64,000 bases of DNA from a virus (lineage: Duplodnaviria; Caudoviricetes). The stretch lies in the IMG/VR virus record IMGVR_UViG_3300037067_021792. One strand, written 5' to 3'. Position 1 is the first letter of the stretch. Each line of letters starts with the position of its first letter. Below are positions 18,050-44,075 of the stretch, in pieces. Made by a program: the position numbers and the translations under genes. The notes under the pieces are model-generated. The model did not search any database. It was not told the DNA's origin and worked only from the letters and a program-made list of their open reading frames with translations.

Positions 18050-18380
18050 AATAACAGTGGTTAAAATTGTGGATCAACAAATTACCGATATTGATCTAAT
18101 TCGGGATATTCTGGTATTTATTAAAGAAAAAGAGCTAGATTGTGCTGTAAGGCTCCTAGAGCAAAACTTATTTAATAAAGTTAGAATTGTAAATATCGAT
18201 GGAGACGATATTACTTGTCATATTATTAAATCCAGTGCCTGTTTAAAAAAACACATAAAAATTTCTGATATAGCATATTTAGAATTAACAACCGAAGATA
18301 GGATATTGAATAACTTTAAACCAGGCACCACTAGATGGAATTTATTGAGTGCTAGTGATATAGATGAAACAGGAATTTAA
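18030..18380 (+). CDS. hypothetical protein
   Basis: Coupled ORF. Confidence 0.65.
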   Translation: MRYVANKITVVKIVDQQITDIDLIRDILVFIKEKELDCAVRLLEQNLFNKVRIVNIDGDDITCHIIKSSACLKKHIKISDIAYLELTTEDRILNNFKPGTTRWNLLSASDIDETGI

Positions 18381-19672
18381 TGGTAGATTTTGTACATATA
18401 CATTCGCATTCGTCATTTTCAAAATTCGATGGCTTTTCTAAGATAGATGATACCCTAGACAAAGATGATAACATCGTCATGCCTGGCATAGTTGGCACAG
18501 CCAAGCGAATGGGCATGCCAGCAGTCGCGCTAACAGACCACGGCACCGTTGCCGGAGCAATTACATTCTTAAAAGCTTGTCGTAAGGGTGATGTAGGTAT
18601 CAAACCCATTCTGGGAATGGAAGCATACCAATCCAGAGATCACGCGTGCCATTCTACGGAAGGGCAACCAGATAAACGGCGAGGCAACAGGCATGTAATT
18701 ATCTTGGCGAAGAACTCTCAGGGATATGCCAATCTGTGCACATTATCTCAGATAGCATCCCTCGAAGGATACCATTATGATCCTCGTATTGATATCGATC
18801 TGCTCGATAAATATAAAGAGGGGCTGATTGTTTCGACCGCATGTTTATCAAATGTTGTTAACTGGAATCTATCCATAGACAGATACGAAAAAGCAAAAGC
18901 AGCAGCAGCAATCTACAAGGATATTTTTGGAGATGATTTTTATCTTGAAATGATGTATCATGGACTAGATTTGGAAGCAAAAGTATTGCCAGGTATACAA
19001 AAAATTTCCAAAGAACTCAATGTCAAATCTATTGTGACAAATGACTGTCATTATGTTGAAAAATCGCATGCTAAGTATCATGAAACGCTTATGTGTATGA
19101 GTTCGGGACGATCCATTAAAGACCCTAAACATATTAAGTTTCCATACGATGAATTTTATTTCAAATCTGGCGACGAAATGGCTGAGGTGTTCGGCCATCT
19201 GCCAAGGTCAATGGCTAATACATTAGAAATTGCTGAAAAATGTGATTACTCTGATATGAATCTCGGGCAGAGAATGTTATTGCCTAAATTTGATCTACCA
19301 GAAGGATATGCGCTTTCATTTGATTATCTAAAAGACATGGCGTGGAAAGGACTACAATCGAAAGGATTAAATGATTCAGTTCCTCACCGAGAGAGACTTC
19401 AGAGAGAACTTGATGATGTCAAGTTGATTTGGGATACACAAAAATTTGGATTTGATACATATTTTCTAATAGTGCGTGATATAATTGAATTTACTCGCAG
19501 AAAGAAAATACCCGGCGGTATTAGAGGTTCGGGATACGGATCTTTACTTTTGTACTGTCTCGGTATATCAGAAGGCGTAGACCCAGTGCGATACAATCTC
19601 CTTTGGGAACGGTTTTTGGGATTTGAATGGGCTTATAAACTATTTCGATCTGATTTTGGCATAAAAGATTGA
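18380..19672 (+). CDS. dnaE: DNA polymerase III alpha, N-terminal part (PHP domain + start of palm)
   Basis: FVHIHSHS, ALTDHG, KPILGMEAY, TNDCHY, RGSGYGSL, LLWERFL. Confidence 0.92.
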   Translation: MVDFVHIHSHSSFSKFDGFSKIDDTLDKDDNIVMPGIVGTAKRMGMPAVALTDHGTVAGAITFLKACRKGDVGIKPILGMEAYQSRDHACHSTEGQPDKRRGNRHVIILAKNSQGYANLCTLSQIASLEGYHYDPRIDIDLLDKYKEGLIVSTACLSNVVNWNLSIDRYEKAKAAAAIYKDIFGDDFYLEMMYHGLDLEAKVLPGIQKISKELNVKSIVTNDCHYVEKSHAKYHETLMCMSSGRSIKDPKHIKFPYDEFYFKSGDEMAEVFGHLPRSMANTLEIAEKCDYSDMNLGQRMLLPKFDLPEGYALSFDYLKDMAWKGLQSKGLNDSVPHRERLQRELDDVKLIWDTQKFGFDTYFLIVRDIIEFTRRKKIPGGIRGSGYGSLLLYCLGISEGVDPVRYNLLWERFLGFEWAYKLFRSDFGIKD

Positions 19673-19697: not shown

Positions 19698-20090
19698 GTG
19701 AACATGCTTAATATAGTCGTGACAACACCAAAATCTGAATTAGAAAATTCCAAACAAGAAGCTACTCGATGTCTCAATAATGGGGGTGGATACTATTTTC
19801 GCAGATTACCAACGCGTCCCAAAAATATAGATGTTGGGAGCAAAATATTCTATGTGGAGGATGGGTATATTCGCGGGTTTGGTGTCATAAGTGATATTGA
19901 AGACAAATCAGACGGTATGGAATGTTCTACAACGGGGACTAAGTGGCGTCCCGGCACATATGTTACCATCCCGGCTGATTCGTGGAAATGGATTAAACCG
20001 ATTCCAATGAAGGGGTTTCAGGGCTGGAGATATTTAAATAATGTAGAAGTTGAGATTGTTGGGGGATGGAAAGATCCTAAACCGGAGTGA
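19698..20090 (+). CDS. ASCH/PUA-like domain protein
   Basis: VGSKIFY..G.I.G.G.I and C-terminal PIPMKGFQGWRY resemble ASCH/PUA superfamily signatures. Confidence 0.55.
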   Translation: MNMLNIVVTTPKSELENSKQEATRCLNNGGGYYFRRLPTRPKNIDVGSKIFYVEDGYIRGFGVISDIEDKSDGMECSTTGTKWRPGTYVTIPADSWKWIKPIPMKGFQGWRYLNNVEVEIVGGWKDPKPE

Positions 20091-20092
20091 AT

Positions 20093-23000
20093 ATGTCTAA
20101 AGAACGAGATAGGGTAGTATCTATAGTAAAAGAAATAAATCCACCCGAGCTGATATCTCAGAAAGATAGATTAAATTCTGAATTATCCAGAATGGATGAT
20201 ATGGGGGTTCTGCCTAATCTGCTATCAATATACGACGATATTAAAAAGAATCCAAATCTAAAAGGAAACACAAACGTCCCTAATTCGCTTCTAGTATATT
20301 GTATGGGTATCACATCAAAACATCCGGATGGGGAATTTACTCTTGAAAAACGACGAGTTTATGGCAGAGATGGATGGCCAGATATTGATATGGATTTCTG
20401 TTATGAACGCAGGCATGAGGTTATAGAGTATTTAATTGAGAAATATGGTCGAGATAAAGTTGCAAATATAGGAACCGTGCAAACTCTAAAAACTAAATCT
20501 GCTTTGCGTCGTGTCATCCGGGCAGTAGATCCGGAAGGGTCTGTGGCCCAGGGTGATCCGAGTAGAAATTTTCAATTTCAAAATGAAATTCTTAATACTC
20601 TTCCCAAATCCAGTATCATGAAAAGAGCGGATGGAACAATCATAGAAGATCTACAGCAAGCATATGATGAGTTCTCAGAATTTCGAAGATATATGGACAA
20701 ATATCCACAAGTATTCGAAATGGCAAAAAATTTAGAAGGTGGCATTTCTGCATGGGGCGCACATGCAGCCGGAATTGTAATATCTCCAATACCCCTGTCT
20801 GAAATATGTCCGTTGCATGTCACAAAAGGAATGGCAGATGATGACACGGCAGAAAAGACCGAATACCAGCCAGAAAAAATGGTTGCTACTCAGTTCTCAA
20901 TGAGCGATGTGGAATCTGTCGGACTTATTAAAATGGATATCCTCGGTTTATCTACCAAGACTGCTATTAATTTAGCTGTAGAGTTAATCAAACAAAACCA
21001 CAGCATCGATGTAGATGTCGCTAATATTCCATTGGATGACAAATTGACTATCAATTTGCTGAAATCAGGACACACCGATGGATGCTTCCAATTAGAAGAA
21101 GTTGGCATGAAGCAAACTATCCAACAAATTGACATAGACTCTTTCGGCGATTTAATGATAGCAATAGCAATGTATAGACCGGGGCCCAAAGACTATATAC
21201 CAGAGATTGCCAGTCGTAAAAAGGGGCAGAAAAAGATTGATTATCCCCATCCTCTTATGGAAAAAATAACCAAAGAAACCTACGGTATTATGTCTTATCA
21301 AGAGGAGGTTATGCAAGTTTTTATGTCACTTGCTGATCTACCACCATCAGAGGGATACACTTTCATGAAAGGTTGTGCTAAGAAGAAAAAGAAATTAATT
21401 CAAGATGCTAAGGATAAATTTATTAAAGGAGCTGTTGCCCGTGGTGTGCCTAAACAGACAGTTCAAAAAATATGGGGGGACATGGAAAAATTCGGTGGAT
21501 ATGCCTTCAACAAGTCACTGTCCCACAACGAGAAAATCATAACCTCCGAAAAGGACCTCTCTATCCAAGAATTGTATAATAGAAAGACCAGAGGAGAAAA
21601 ACTGCCGAATGTATATAGTCCAGACGGAAAATCAATTAGAATTGCAGATGTATACGATCATGGTGTAATTCCTGTTTGGGAGGTTATATTTAGTGACGGA
21701 AGTATTCATAAATGCTCGATGAATCACAGATTTTTAACCACTAGCGGCGTTCTGCCTCTGCATGATATTTTAAAACATAAAGTATCAGTTATACAGAATG
21801 CGGAGATATTACATGCCCAAAAGGAAAGATTGGATTTGTTCAGGATGCCAGGCTCTTTTGACGAACCGCCGGCTTTTCGATGTCCACAAACGGGAATGCA
21901 AGAAGTACCATCTAAGCAAAAAACACTTCGAATGCCAGGGTTGCTATCAGAAGTTTACAAAAAGGGGACTGTGGAAGCACAAGAGAGAATGTGCTCTGTG
22001 GAAATCTCTCAAATCAGACCACTACTCACAACCAAACTCAATAAATTCAAGAAAATTTTGGGATCAAATACACCAGGATCCTACACAAATGGAGGCATAC
22101 AAAAACAAGGTGTCGATATCGGTATCGTTGTCGATTCTTGCAAATCAAACAGAGAGACAGCGCAGGTCAATATTGATGTCCAAATTAAACCAGAATTATT
22201 ACGATCTATTTCAAAAAAATCGATCCGACACAGCAGCAAAAACATCCGCAAGACCGGACATACAAAAGCAAAGAGCCATGCGATTGAAGAAATGGAGAGA
22301 AGAGAATCCCGAGAAGTTTATGAAAATAATCAGCAGTTGGCAATCAGCCCCGGAATGCATGCTCAAAACTATATTGTTGCCAATGGGATTCAAACATTCT
22401 CAAATAGTGAAAAGTCAAAAGTTTACATCCAAGTCAAAAAGAAGACAAATAGATTTTATGGATCAATCCCGCAAAATAGTAGTAGAATACGATGGACAGT
22501 ATCATTTCTCGAACAGAGATGCTCTCAGATTCAACCAAGAGAAACAAAAGGATTTGGAGGTAAATCAGGTTCTTTGCAGCAGAGGATATCTAGTGATACG
22601 AATGTCTTACGATGTATGGAGGTATTCCAAAAAAGAGTTCAAAAACGAAGCTTTAGGAATTCTTTTCAACCTGATTTGCAATTGCTCAGAAAGAAGTATA
22701 GTCAAAACAATTGGAAAGAAGTACAAATCATAGGTATAAAATACGTAGGGATGGAACAATGTTATGATTTGGAAGTGGACAGTCCAGAGCATCTTTATTG
22801 TTTGTCATCGGGTATTATTAATAGCAATTCTCATGCCTGCGCTTATGCATATGAAAGTTGGAAAACTGCGTATCTAAAGGCCCACTTTCCTGTTGAATTT
22901 GTTTCGGCCCGTATGACTGTTGAAGCTAAACGCAGAAAATTTGATTATGTAGAGAAGTGCGAAAGAGATGCCACTAGTCATTTTGGCATTAAAATACTCC

Positions 23001-23341
23001 CTATAGATTTGAATAAGTCCAAGATGTCATATACAATAACAGGGGACAAAGAGTTGCGTAGACCTTTGATTATTAAAGATATTGGTGATAAGGCTGCTGA
23101 AGAGATAATTAAACACCAACCTTATGATGTTCAGGACTTGTTTTATTCGTTTGCTTCTGTGGTTGGTCCCGCTGTTAACACCAGAGTTATTGAGGCATTA
23201 TGTGATGCCAAATTATTCGGTGACATAAAGAAAGCTAAAGCTTTGAAAGATTTCGATGATATCAAGAACGATAGAAAGAAATCAGTGGGCAGGCAAACTG
23301 GGGATATTTTTGGCTCTAACCGTGTATCCCGGAAAAAATAA
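20093..23341 (+). CDS. dnaE: DNA polymerase III alpha, catalytic part, intein-containing precursor
   Basis: PDIDMDF, HAAGIVI, GLIKMDILGL, GCFQLE, YRPGP, YQEEVMQ, YAFNK|SHA, YLKAHFP; GGAG SD before ATG 20093; no C-terminal OB domain. Confidence 0.92.
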   Translation: MSKERDRVVSIVKEINPPELISQKDRLNSELSRMDDMGVLPNLLSIYDDIKKNPNLKGNTNVPNSLLVYCMGITSKHPDGEFTLEKRRVYGRDGWPDIDMDFCYERRHEVIEYLIEKYGRDKVANIGTVQTLKTKSALRRVIRAVDPEGSVAQGDPSRNFQFQNEILNTLPKSSIMKRADGTIIEDLQQAYDEFSEFRRYMDKYPQVFEMAKNLEGGISAWGAHAAGIVISPIPLSEICPLHVTKGMADDDTAEKTEYQPEKMVATQFSMSDVESVGLIKMDILGLSTKTAINLAVELIKQNHSIDVDVANIPLDDKLTINLLKSGHTDGCFQLEEVGMKQTIQQIDIDSFGDLMIAIAMYRPGPKDYIPEIASRKKGQKKIDYPHPLMEKITKETYGIMSYQEEVMQVFMSLADLPPSEGYTFMKGCAKKKKKLIQDAKDKFIKGAVARGVPKQTVQKIWGDMEKFGGYAFNKSLSHNEKIITSEKDLSIQELYNRKTRGEKLPNVYSPDGKSIRIADVYDHGVIPVWEVIFSDGSIHKCSMNHRFLTTSGVLPLHDILKHKVSVIQNAEILHAQKERLDLFRMPGSFDEPPAFRCPQTGMQEVPSKQKTLRMPGLLSEVYKKGTVEAQERMCSVEISQIRPLLTTKLNKFKKILGSNTPGSYTNGGIQKQGVDIGIVVDSCKSNRETAQVNIDVQIKPELLRSISKKSIRHSSKNIRKTGHTKAKSHAIEEMERRESREVYENNQQLAISPGMHAQNYIVANGIQTFSNSEKSKVYIQVKKKTNRFYGSIPQNSSRIRWTVSFLEQRCSQIQPRETKGFGGKSGSLQQRISSDTNVLRCMEVFQKRVQKRSFRNSFQPDLQLLRKKYSQNNWKEVQIIGIKYVGMEQCYDLEVDSPEHLYCLSSGIINSNSHACAYAYESWKTAYLKAHFPVEFVSARMTVEAKRRKFDYVEKCERDATSHFGIKILPIDLNKSKMSYTITGDKELRRPLIIKDIGDKAAEEIIKHQPYDVQDLFYSFASVVGPAVNTRVIEALCDAKLFGDIKKAKALKDFDDIKNDRKKSVGRQTGDIFGSNRVSRKK
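21515..22828 (+). mobile_element. intein (438 aa) in DnaE at FNK|SH, no in-frame endonuclease
   Basis: Starts SLSHNE, block B CSMNHRF, block F CYDLEV..HLY, ends SGIINSN then Ser; excision restores GYAFNKSHA. Confidence 0.92.
21813..22733 (+). CDS. Zn-finger + Vsr/DUF559-like endonuclease overprinted in the +1 frame within the DnaE intein
   Basis: GGAG 21802-21805, 7 nt before ATG 21813; two CxxC-x12-H-x3-C repeats; SAPE, IDF, IVVEYDGQYH, KD, GYLVIR nuclease motifs. Confidence 0.85.
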   Translation: MPKRKDWICSGCQALLTNRRLFDVHKRECKKYHLSKKHFECQGCYQKFTKRGLWKHKRECALWKSLKSDHYSQPNSINSRKFWDQIHQDPTQMEAYKNKVSISVSLSILANQTERQRRSILMSKLNQNYYDLFQKNRSDTAAKTSARPDIQKQRAMRLKKWREENPEKFMKIISSWQSAPECMLKTILLPMGFKHSQIVKSQKFTSKSKRRQIDFMDQSRKIVVEYDGQYHFSNRDALRFNQEKQKDLEVNQVLCSRGYLVIRMSYDVWRYSKKEFKNEALGILFNLICNCSERSIVKTIGKKYKS

Positions 23342-39163: not shown

Positions 39164-40532
39164 TTCGCTGCAGTCAAGGAAACCGCTTGGTCTTCAGCCA
39201 AGCGGAGGAATTGACTGTCTCTCCTTTCTCTCAAAATATTTTGAACTTTTCTCAAATTCCACAAAGGAACTTGTATAATTTCTCCGTATGTAGTAATTAT
39301 GAGTAACTTAACCTACAACATTCAGTTACACACTCAATCAGCAGAAGACCATGTTCTCCTTCTGCAAACTCTTGTCGAACATCAAAAAATCTGGAACCAT
39401 ATCTCTAAAGATACCTTTCAACACCAGATGTTTAATAAGAAGATTATGTATGACCGCAACTACCATAAGTGCAGAAAACTCTTTCCTGATGCTCCCTCTC
39501 AAGTTATTATACGAGCAAAAGACTCTGTCTACGCCACCTACAAAGCTCTAAAAACCACAAAAATGCTCAACCAACTAGAAGAACCGTGTCAGCAAACCAA
39601 CTTAAGCATTCGGCTAGACAAGCGGCTCTACACCTTTCTTGACGGTAACAGAATTAAACTGACCACAACTGGAAAACGTATCATCTGTTCCTACCAGCCT
39701 TATGATAAGTTCGAGGAACTATTCTCAAAGTATTCTGCTTGTGATCCTCTCATCTTTATGAGGGACAACGAGTTTTGGCTCTCTGTGTCATTTGAAGTTC
39801 CAGAACCAACTTTTGTAGAAAACACCTGTCTCGGGGTAGACCTTGGCGAAAGGCGTTTCGCCGTGACATCAGAAGGTCTGGCTCTCACTGATAAAGATTT
39901 CCTCAGACAGAAACGTTCTCTCCGTTATCTCAAACGAGTCTTAAACTCCAAAAAGCAAAAGACTAACTCACACTCATCAAAGAGAAAACTGCACAAGCTT
40001 CGTAGACAAGAGAGAAACAAAAATAAGAACTTGTCTCACCATCTAGCTAACAAAATTCTTGAAACTAGTTCCAATACAATTGTTCTGGAAGACTTGTCCA
40101 ATTTGAAGAAAAAGAAATTGAAGAAGGATAATTACAAGAAGAGCAAGTCGTCCAAGAATAGACTTAGTCAGGTCCCCTTTGGGATGCTGTTGAGCATCCT
40201 GACCTACAAGGCACCTCTTCGAGGGAAGAGGATTAAAACGGTTAACCCTGCTTATACCAGTCAAAGAGATCATAGAGGTTTGGCTGGAGGAGAGCGTAAG
40301 GGATGTGGGTTTATATCTTCTGATGGAGTTATATTTGATGCAGATTGGAATGCAGCTATTAATATAGCTCGTAAGTATGTTCAGACTCAAGAAGCGAAAG
40401 GAGCTAAACACCCTGTCTCCTTTAATTTGCCGCTACGCGGCAGGTTAAACGTTACAGGCAGGCTGCTATCAACCAGCCAATCGTTCCTGTTAAGGAGCAA
40501 ACCCGACCGTCTTTAGCGGTTGGGTAGTTGAT
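39164..40532 (+). mobile_element. IS200/IS605-family tnpB-only element (IS1341-like), 1369 bp
   Basis: Left hairpin CCGCTTGG-tcttcag-CCAAGCGG, right hairpin CCCGACCG-tctttag-CGGTTGGG then TAGTTGAT; guide tetranucleotides fit the IS608 pairing rules. Confidence 0.82.
39299..40516 (+). CDS. tnpB: RNA-guided endonuclease TnpB
   Basis: RuvC I GVDLG, II IVLEDL, YKA..G, VNPAYTSQ, III DADWNAAINI. Confidence 0.92.
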   Translation: MSNLTYNIQLHTQSAEDHVLLLQTLVEHQKIWNHISKDTFQHQMFNKKIMYDRNYHKCRKLFPDAPSQVIIRAKDSVYATYKALKTTKMLNQLEEPCQQTNLSIRLDKRLYTFLDGNRIKLTTTGKRIICSYQPYDKFEELFSKYSACDPLIFMRDNEFWLSVSFEVPEPTFVENTCLGVDLGERRFAVTSEGLALTDKDFLRQKRSLRYLKRVLNSKKQKTNSHSSKRKLHKLRRQERNKNKNLSHHLANKILETSSNTIVLEDLSNLKKKKLKKDNYKKSKSSKNRLSQVPFGMLLSILTYKAPLRGKRIKTVNPAYTSQRDHRGLAGGERKGCGFISSDGVIFDADWNAAINIARKYVQTQEAKGAKHPVSFNLPLRGRLNVTGRLLSTSQSFLLRSKPDRL

Positions 40533-42905: not shown

Positions 42906-44075
42906 TTGAACACATCTATAGTGGGCTTGTTTTTCGGCGACGAGGCCAAAGGGAAAATTACTGATTTACTCTCATCCGACTACGATATTGTAGTTAGATA
43001 CTCGGGTGGCGCTAATGCTGGACATACAGTTCGATTTAATGATAAAACCTATAAATTACATCAATTACCGACCGGATATTTATCAGGCAAGGAAAGTGTA
43101 TTGGCCAATGGCATGGTTTTAAACCCAATTTCTCTGGCCAAGGAAATCCAAAATTATAAAACTTCCGCTCCGCTATTTATCAGCGATAGAGCACATGCTG
43201 TTATGCCTTGGCATATAGTATGTGATGCAAAACAGGGGGATGGAATAGGGACTACCAAGAAAGGCATAGGTCCATGCTATGCAGATAAGATGCACAGATG
43301 GAACGCAATTAGAATGGGGGATTTGGTTCGAAAACTAATCGATGCGAAATTTCAGAATTTTTTTGCTACTGACGAAATATTTCATGGAAACAAGTTGTGG
43401 ACAGATTATAAAACCGCTGCTGATATGCTGTATCCGTTTATTTGTGATACTGGCGAGAAGCTTCGTAAAGATGTAAAAGATGGCCGAAATATTCTTTTTG
43501 AGGGAGCGCAAGGTATCGGATTGGATGTCGATCATGGATTTTCATATCCATATGTTACAAGCTCTGGAGTTGGCCCATCTGCGATTCCTCAATCCTGTGG
43601 TTTGCCTAATCTTCATTTAGATCGTATTATAGGAGTCATGAAGTGTTATACCACCCGAGTCGGAGAAGGACCATTTCCTGGTGAACTTGGTATTATAAAT
43701 TCATATCATTTAGATCTAAGGTTTGCTCTATGCAAAGAAATTGCTGATCGTATTAGAGAAAAAGGCAACGAATATGGCACAACAACAGGACGGCCTCGAA
43801 GAATTGGATGGGTAGATTTCCGATTATTGAAATATGCCATTGATGTTACTGGAACAACAGAAATCGCCCTTATGCATGCGGATACATTATGCGGGATAGA
43901 TAGAATTGGGTTTATCGATACCGATGGTGAGTTGAAATATACACCTGGCTGGAATACAATAGAGGATCCGGCATTAATGAAATATATTGAAATAATTGAG
44001 GAAAAATCCGGAGTACCCGTGACAATATTAAGTTATGGTCCAGACAGAAACGACACGAAGTATCTTAACCTATGA
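42906..44075 (+). CDS. purA: adenylosuccinate synthetase
   Basis: GDEAKGK, GGANAGHT, GTTKKGIGP.Y.DK, EGAQG, YPYVTSS, TRVGEGPFP, GTTTGRPRRIGW. Confidence 0.92.
   Translation: MNTSIVGLFFGDEAKGKITDLLSSDYDIVVRYSGGANAGHTVRFNDKTYKLHQLPTGYLSGKESVLANGMVLNPISLAKEIQNYKTSAPLFISDRAHAVMPWHIVCDAKQGDGIGTTKKGIGPCYADKMHRWNAIRMGDLVRKLIDAKFQNFFATDEIFHGNKLWTDYKTAADMLYPFICDTGEKLRKDVKDGRNILFEGAQGIGLDVDHGFSYPYVTSSGVGPSAIPQSCGLPNLHLDRIIGVMKCYTTRVGEGPFPGELGIINSYHLDLRFALCKEIADRIREKGNEYGTTTGRPRRIGWVDFRLLKYAIDVTGTTEIALMHADTLCGIDRIGFIDTDGELKYTPGWNTIEDPALMKYIEIIEEKSGVPVTILSYGPDRNDTKYLNL

Follow-up and report, generated by a model that had tools for sequence, protein, structure and literature searches.

A probable dual-coding mobile intein in a phage dnaE gene, with splicing domains and a Vsr-like endonuclease read in two frames

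Inteins usually carry their homing endonuclease as a domain fused in the same reading frame. A different arrangement is known for the cyanobacterial (Synechocystis) DnaX intein, in which a LAGLIDADG enzyme is encoded by an overlapping open reading frame (ORF); in the account of Phillips et al. 2026 (bioRxiv 10.64898/2026.09.14.751524), this finding is credited to Gorbalenya 1998, and the in-frame middle of DnaX is described as disordered, its +2 ORF as folded and its ratios of non-synonymous to synonymous substitution (dN/dS) as specific to the frame. Actinobacteriophage inteins have been reported with an endonuclease VII-like gene in frame 3 and with LAGLIDADG or VSR-like genes in antisense (bioRxiv 10.1101/2025.01.02.630785), and ShiLan-type insertions in phage methylase genes, which have no splicing domains, hide an HNH endonuclease that is out of frame (PMC11855218). 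In the fractured genes of Dassa et al. 2009 (PMC2677866), a stop follows the N-terminal half of the intein (IntN), a free-standing Vsr-like endonuclease gene lies between the two intein halves, with an intergenic gap or a short overlap (6-69 bp), and the C-terminal half (IntC) has a new start. Here we describe an insert at positions 21515-22828 of a 64,000-nucleotide stretch of viral DNA (IMG/VR record IMGVR_UViG_3300037067_021792; Duplodnaviria, Caudoviricetes; hereafter the window, all features given below being on its + strand). The insert is very probably a real, selected, mobile intein in a phage dnaE gene that codes in two frames.

Like the DnaX and actinobacteriophage cases, the window has a contiguous ORF with folded splicing ends and a disordered in-frame middle, and a folded endonuclease in another frame with its own Shine-Dalgarno (SD) sequence, purifying selection acting on that frame only. 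Unlike them, it has a Vsr-like/EDxHD enzyme on the sense strand in frame +1, its host gene is phage dnaE, and it has fractured kin at the same site. With the fractured genes (PMC2677866) it shares the nuclease family, the Hint halves, the occurrence in phage replication genes including dnaE and a hairpin upstream of the endonuclease start, but it has no stop, no IntC start and a complete overlap of 921 nt between the nuclease and intein ORFs. The catalytic fold is shared with I-Bth0305I from the recA group I intron of phage 0305phi8-36 (PMC3239194; 3r3p) and with E. coli Vsr (Z 9.9 and 12.1, respectively), and the conserved acidic and His residues (D, ExD, H, D) are present as in those enzymes. 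However, I-Bth0305I is encoded by an intron and Vsr functions in repair, both are only 17-19% identical to the window nuclease, and the N-terminal zinc fingers and helical region differ. The ShiLan insert stays in its host protein as a loop (PMC11855218), whereas the window insert, as a true intein, should be removed. An out-of-frame endonuclease in an intein is of a kind that is rare but published; the novelty here lies in which nuclease family and host gene are involved and in the kinship to fractured genes. In the literature, we found no report of a sense-strand, +1 Vsr-like/EDxHD endonuclease inside a phage dnaE intein, nor of a close kinship between such inteins and fractured dnaE genes that share their site.

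The host ORF (20087-23341, 1084 aa) contains the Pfam domains DNA_pol3_alpha, DNA_pol3_finger and HHH_6. Alignment with an intein-less phage DnaE (L001, 33% identical to that of the window), in which GYSFN-LSHAVAY is uninterrupted at this site, delimited an insert of 438 codons between GYAFNK and SHACAYAY. The N-extein (20087-21514) comprises the polymerase core with the NTPase and finger domains (PF07733, PF17657) up to GYAFNK, and the C-extein (22829-23341) the remaining DnaE from SHACAYAY onwards, with HHH_6. The insert reads in the dnaE frame (frame 0) without a stop from Ser1, directly after GYAFNK, to Asn438, and is followed by Ser+1, with which the C-extein begins. IntN comprises residues 1-105 (21515-21829) and has a block B S-x-x-H in which His71 is invariant; IntC comprises residues 397-438 (22703-22828), ends with Asn438 and has no start codon of its own.

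An alignment of ten contiguous inteins of the window type (A3) was used as a profile against PDB sequences and matched the fused Npu DnaE intein (2keq) with an E value of 4e-20 in two stretches, A3 positions 2-90 aligning to residues 4-97 and positions 379-419 to residues 100-139 of the Npu intein; therefore, the middle is inserted exactly at the canonical split/endonuclease-insertion site. Invariant columns in A3 were confined to the first ~85 and last ~27 residues. They include H71, D418 and H426 (block F) and N438, with S68 occupying the block B T position, while residue 1 was Ser, or Thr once, in all 10 contiguous relatives. In the AlphaFold2 model of the intein frame, the predicted local distance difference test score (pLDDT) was ~90 for residues 1-105 and ~88 for residues 397-438, and the top Foldseek matches were the Ssp/Npu DnaE and DnaB mini-inteins (E ~1e-6), with root mean square deviations of 1.6-2.8 Å over ~100 columns for the Ssp and Npu DnaE inteins. 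By sequence and predicted fold, the insert is thus a bona fide contiguous intein with Hint ends, which would be expected to splice. Neither in the window nor in the related locus L004 did we find an ATG, GTG or TTG with an SD at the position where IntC starts in fractured relatives, and the sole Met near this position in both lies inside the IntC strands; fractured relative L003 has an ATG there. The hallmarks of a fractured gene, namely a stop after IntN, a separate IntC start and three ORFs, are accordingly present in L003 and absent from the window.

Between these ends lies a linker of 291 residues (106-396; 21830-22702) for which we found no accepted Pfam match (the sole weak one being well below the cut-off), no PHROG match and no significant PDB match. 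Its pLDDT was below 50 throughout, with a mean of ~26, so that it is predicted to be disordered, and the ten contiguous inteins have no invariant column in it. Host-frame amino acid identity of the middle between relatives was 0.23-0.37, the level of the non-coding +1 frame, and it did not exceed that measured for fractured relatives of comparable divergence. The middle is filler in the precursor, constrained only against stop codons.

The same DNA in frame +1 holds a homing-endonuclease gene of 306 aa plus a TAG stop (21813-22733), nested in the intein linker and preceded by an SD, GGAG (21802-21805), 7 nt upstream of its ATG. The ORF matched Pfam DUF559 (PF04480) with 24.3 bits, above the gathering cut-off of 20.6, as well as phrog_559 (annotated 'HNH endonuclease', 4.8e-8). 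Word-indexed protein searches returned no match for the nuclease, so that an exhaustive HMMER search was required; it gave 188 homologues at E<=1e-3, mostly ~300 aa long, the best being 47% identical over the full length, and the homologues begin at the same MPKRK as the window nuclease. Similarly, a search of viral contigs with the single nuclease protein gave no match and alignment queries were required, and among GenBank phages none was matched by tblastn with the nuclease or by blastn with the gene.

The window nuclease retains every residue that is invariant among 40 family members, including D219, E230, D232, D252 and R268; H236, nearly invariant, is present as well. AlphaFold2 modelled the 306-aa protein with a mean pLDDT of 89. 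The catalytic domain (22335-22721) is Vsr-like/EDxHD, of the PD-(D/E)xK superfamily: VIA-align of the C-terminal domain gave Z 12.1 and 11.4 for Vsr (1cw0 and 1vsr), 10.6 for the DUF559-like 3hrl and 9.9 for the I-Bth0305I catalytic domain (3r3p), whereas unrelated PD-(D/E)xK rows scored below ~7, under the Vsr-type matches. Vsr was also the top Foldseek match, and C2H2 fingers were matched by Foldseek too. Two CCHC zinc-finger-like modules occupy residues 9-29 and 41-60 (21837-21992). Their residues C9/C12/H25/C29 and C41/C44/H56/C60 are invariant among the three closest relatives (alignment A2), and C44/H56/C60 across all ten contiguous loci as well. Against PDB sequences, the family profile matched the Ros/MucR zinc finger 2jsp (E 1.2e-4); its matches there were all zinc fingers, and Vsr emerged from the fold comparisons only. 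The modules are likely the DNA-binding part of the protein. On its conserved residues and modelled fold, the nuclease is a Vsr-like/EDxHD enzyme and would be expected to cleave DNA.

A preliminary description of this stretch, made from its letters, had proposed a contiguous intein with normal splicing ends at 21515-22828, a domainless filler in its middle and a separate Vsr/DUF559-type nuclease gene in frame +1 with its own SD and ATG. The profile and structure searches of both frames bear this out: the Hint ends were recognised by sequence and fold, the +1 ORF was assigned to DUF559 above cut-off and to a Vsr-like fold by Foldseek and VIA-align, the disordered middle had no significant match, and the SD and ATG are conserved in every related contiguous locus examined.

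Both frames are held open by selection. Between 21798 and 22733, the 311 codons of frame 0 include no stop and frame +1 has only its own terminal TAG, while frame +2 has 20; over the whole dnaE gene, there are 53 stops in frame +1 and 94 in frame +2 per ~1084 codons. For a stop to appear in frame 0, a nuclease codon must end in T and be followed by one that starts with AA, AG or GA. In the window, none of the 106 codons in this position ends in T, versus 58 of 199 elsewhere (Fisher p 7e-13), and in ten contiguous loci the counts were 0/1046 and 626/2077. In 18 fractured relatives there was no avoidance (797/2451 before AA, AG or GA versus 1310/3773 elsewhere). When synonymous codons were resampled according to the codon usage of the window, 3000 draws gave a mean of 28.7 frame-0 stops (standard deviation 3.8) and a minimum of 16, as compared with the observed 0. 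The cost of keeping frame 0 open is borne wholly at synonymous third positions of nuclease codons, and that the nuclease invariably occupies frame +1 relative to the host is explained by every potential stop being removable there by a synonymous T-to-C change.

The preliminary description had also suggested a frame-by-frame comparison of substitutions among homologues. Nucleotide distances by nuclease codon position followed n3>n1>n2 in pairs down to 49% identity; this pattern, together with the identity of the middle at non-coding level, means that protein-level purifying selection acts on the nuclease frame only. Since the host-frame middle is at non-coding identity and yet has zero stops, it is selected only to stay open.

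The same two-frame layout was found in 13 further distinct metagenomic or viral loci, with the nuclease always in +1 of the host frame (L004, identical with L018/L050; L019; L020; L030, identical with L031; L032; L033, identical with L056; L034; L035; L036; L037; L054; L055; L057). Their host ORFs are open throughout, with lengths of 900-1700 aa, or 384 aa in the short L037 contig, and they share one dnaE site, Y(G/A)FN(K/R/A)↓S/T...SN↓SH (arrows, intein boundaries). An SD lies 6-9 nt before the nuclease ATG in 11/11 of these loci examined, as well as in the window, and identities among the nucleases of contiguous loci go down to ~25-30%. The L037 contig (1153 bp), whose dnaE intein is contiguous and overprinted, is from a metagenome-assembled genome of 'Candidatus Omnitrophota'; probably, a piece of phage DNA was binned with a bacterial genome here.

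From these features we infer how the element would splice, where it would cut and how it may be regulated. In frame 0, ribosomes translating dnaE would read through to give a precursor consisting of N-extein, IntN, the ~290-residue linker, IntC and C-extein. The two Hint halves would fold together and splice in cis by means of Ser1, the block B His, the terminal Asn and Ser+1, leaving an intact DnaE, and the disordered linker would have no function of its own, its sole requirement being the lack of a stop codon. In frame +1, translation from the internal SD and ATG would yield the 306-aa enzyme as a free-standing protein, whose parts are a pair of zinc fingers, helical linkers and the nuclease domain. 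By analogy to the fractured-gene relatives and I-Bth0305I, this enzyme may cut intein-less dnaE near the site coding for GY(G/A)FNK↓SHA, upon which recombinational repair would copy the whole element in (homing). The SD is probably in a hairpin that would limit translation of the nuclease.

Some features weigh against this scheme. The penultimate His is missing, the window intein ending with SN rather than HN, and Ser takes the place of Cys at both splice junctions. No Pfam intein model matched the single window sequence at E 0.1; intein membership rests on the profile and the fold. In addition, the predicted hairpin lies in translated dnaE coding sequence.

This hairpin (21756-21805) was predicted by RNAfold to pair the SD with a probability of 1.00, its outer stem being 21756-21762/21799-21805 and its inner stem 21763-21772/21778-21787. 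Of 12 contiguous loci, 11 were predicted to have the SD paired at P>=0.8, by stems of differing sequence, although the shuffle control was weak; in the larger of two clades of contiguous forms (see below), a local stem of 10-13 bp, again differing in sequence by locus, lies just upstream of the ATG. RNAalifold found no consensus in a gapless alignment of the SD region, the hairpins being out of register, hence the folding of each sequence by itself. Hairpins were described upstream of 15/16 fractured-gene endonucleases by Dassa et al. 2009 (PMC2677866), who tie them to sequestration of the ribosome-binding site, as shown for Aeh1 mobE. Because of its position in coding sequence and the weak shuffle control, a regulatory role of the hairpin in the window is suggestive only. 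Passing dnaE ribosomes could occlude the hairpin or open it, and dnaE translation through it may gate the amount of nuclease.

The data can be set against other explanations of the two open frames. Two compensating indels, a concern raised in the preliminary description, would make the layout a sequencing or assembly artefact of a canonical intein. The chance of this is negligible, since frame 0 would have to be open over 311 codons by chance where ~29 stops are expected and at least 16 were drawn in every resampling, the layout and relative frame recur in 13 independent contigs from different samples with identities down to ~25-30%, stops are avoided at the level of single codons, and the SD, ATG and stop that belong to the nuclease are conserved. 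If the +1 ORF were instead a silent, untranslated relic of an invading endonuclease gene, the element would be a mini-intein with a long linker, for which the predicted sequestration of the SD might speak. A relic would, however, gather stops in its own frame, whereas the nuclease shows the n3>n1>n2 purifying pattern, retains all invariant catalytic and zinc-binding residues and keeps its ORF length, SD and ATG in every contiguous locus examined, so that we regard this explanation as unlikely.

Alternatively, the gene could function as a split one although its frame is open, with IntC and the C-extein made from an internal start and the halves splicing in trans. Separate halves do occur in 21 of 35 related elements at the same site, which must trans-splice, and the Hint halves are homologous to split inteins; but selection against every frame-0 stop (0/1046) would be purposeless unless ribosomes read through, and the window and L004 lack a start codon with SD where IntC would have to begin, which makes this case very improbable. 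We consider equally remote a programmed +1 frameshift near 21800, stimulated by the internal SD-like sequence, that would produce a fusion of the N-terminal DnaE part, IntN and nuclease. It could draw on the GGAG inside the translated dnaE frame and on a relative, P0014, with IntN fused in frame to the nuclease. Against it, there is no conserved slippery or hungry-codon site and no frame-0 stop to stall ribosomes, and the spacer between SD and ATG varies freely in sequence while SD spacing and ATG are conserved, as for initiation. Translation of both frames in a dual-coding intein is therefore the explanation adopted here.

In 21 other relatives at the same dnaE site, the intein halves are separate ORFs. 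Twenty of these are fractured (L003, L005-L012, L021-L029, L051 and L052), with a stop that ends IntN, a free-standing nuclease and an IntC with its own ATG. The remaining one, P0014 (779 aa), is a DnaE fragment with a mini-intein; at the GYGFNR↓T site its IntN runs in frame into the Vsr-like nuclease, a third arrangement (IntN-nuclease fusion) beside the fractured and the overprinted ones. In an unrooted maximum-likelihood tree of 35 nucleases, the contiguous forms fell into two clades, a larger one of 10 rows (support 100/100) and that of the window with 4 rows (99/96), the latter being sister to fractured L003 (98/98) within an otherwise fractured group. The tree needs at least 2 state changes, and a contiguous ancestor would need three or more. 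Rates of change between the two states are probably asymmetric, for one mutation makes a stop whereas ~30 stops must be absent for re-fusion; because of this, and because the tree is unrooted for want of an outgroup, either direction of evolution is compatible with it. The reading of the window element as an intermediate towards split inteins, put forward in the preliminary description, is neither shown nor refuted by the sequences, and re-fusion would be at least as parsimonious because the window clade is nested among fractured forms. Frame relations in the fractured relatives are mixed; therefore, they did not arise from the contiguous form simply by gain of one stop.

It is possible, and we say so tentatively, that one family of mobile elements at a single dnaE site can pass between an overprinted and a fractured state, and that the former state is a viable link, in either direction, between contiguous inteins and naturally split ones. 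If so, a single third-position C-to-T change in the linker plus a start for IntC would fracture the gene, and the family would be a natural series for reconstructing the birth or the re-fusion of split inteins.

As a separate observation, the C-terminal tail of the nuclease in the larger contiguous clade, with the consensus CPW..C.ILK.P..PT, overlaps well-conserved IntC strands (L030:4870-4986, and the same region of L032-L036 and L057). There, real coding sequence is overlapped in both frames, and it is the nuclease tail that looks like the passenger.

The window appears to come from a large, uncultured phage. Every long ORF in it is on the + strand; DnaE, a UvsX-like recombinase, a DnaB-like helicase and another helicase are among their products. 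The dnaE itself is fragmented: its PHP/N-terminal part forms an ORF of its own (18380-19672), and a 130-aa DUF1489 ORF (19698-20090) separates this from the polymerase piece. About 70 residues around a 'LLxYCxGI(S/T)' motif occur twice, where the first piece ends and again where the second begins, as if the gene had been split and its junction duplicated; L004 is divided in this way too, but with another intervening ORF. The DUF1489 and polymerase ORFs share an initial GTG-AAT-ATG (VNM), at 19698-19706 and 20087-20095, and translation of the two may truly begin at the ATGs at 19704 and 20093. The L004 DnaE (L004:1861-5532) contains a second mini-intein (CLAKDT...LVHN↓C) at a GSISAYG↓HAAG site, which is uninterrupted in the window (allele GGISAWGAHAAG). 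Elsewhere in the window, a TnpB-like ORF (39299-40516) has Pfam OrfB_IS605 and a Cas12f1-like TNB domain, and an adenylosuccinate synthetase gene (42906-44075; Pfam E 1e-110) in phage-like context is likely an auxiliary gene of nucleotide metabolism.

The element is a clean example of overprinting, in which one frame need only stay open while the other pays at synonymous sites. Annotation pipelines will overlook such a nested gene or label the intein 'degenerate', and the Ser-dependent, cysteine-less Hint halves may interest protein engineers. The arrangement is a third stable architecture of intein and homing endonuclease, neither an in-frame domain nor a fractured gene, and is deeply conserved in phage replication genes. 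Because one insertion site hosts both contiguous and split members of this nuclease and intein family, the origin of split inteins can be approached directly.

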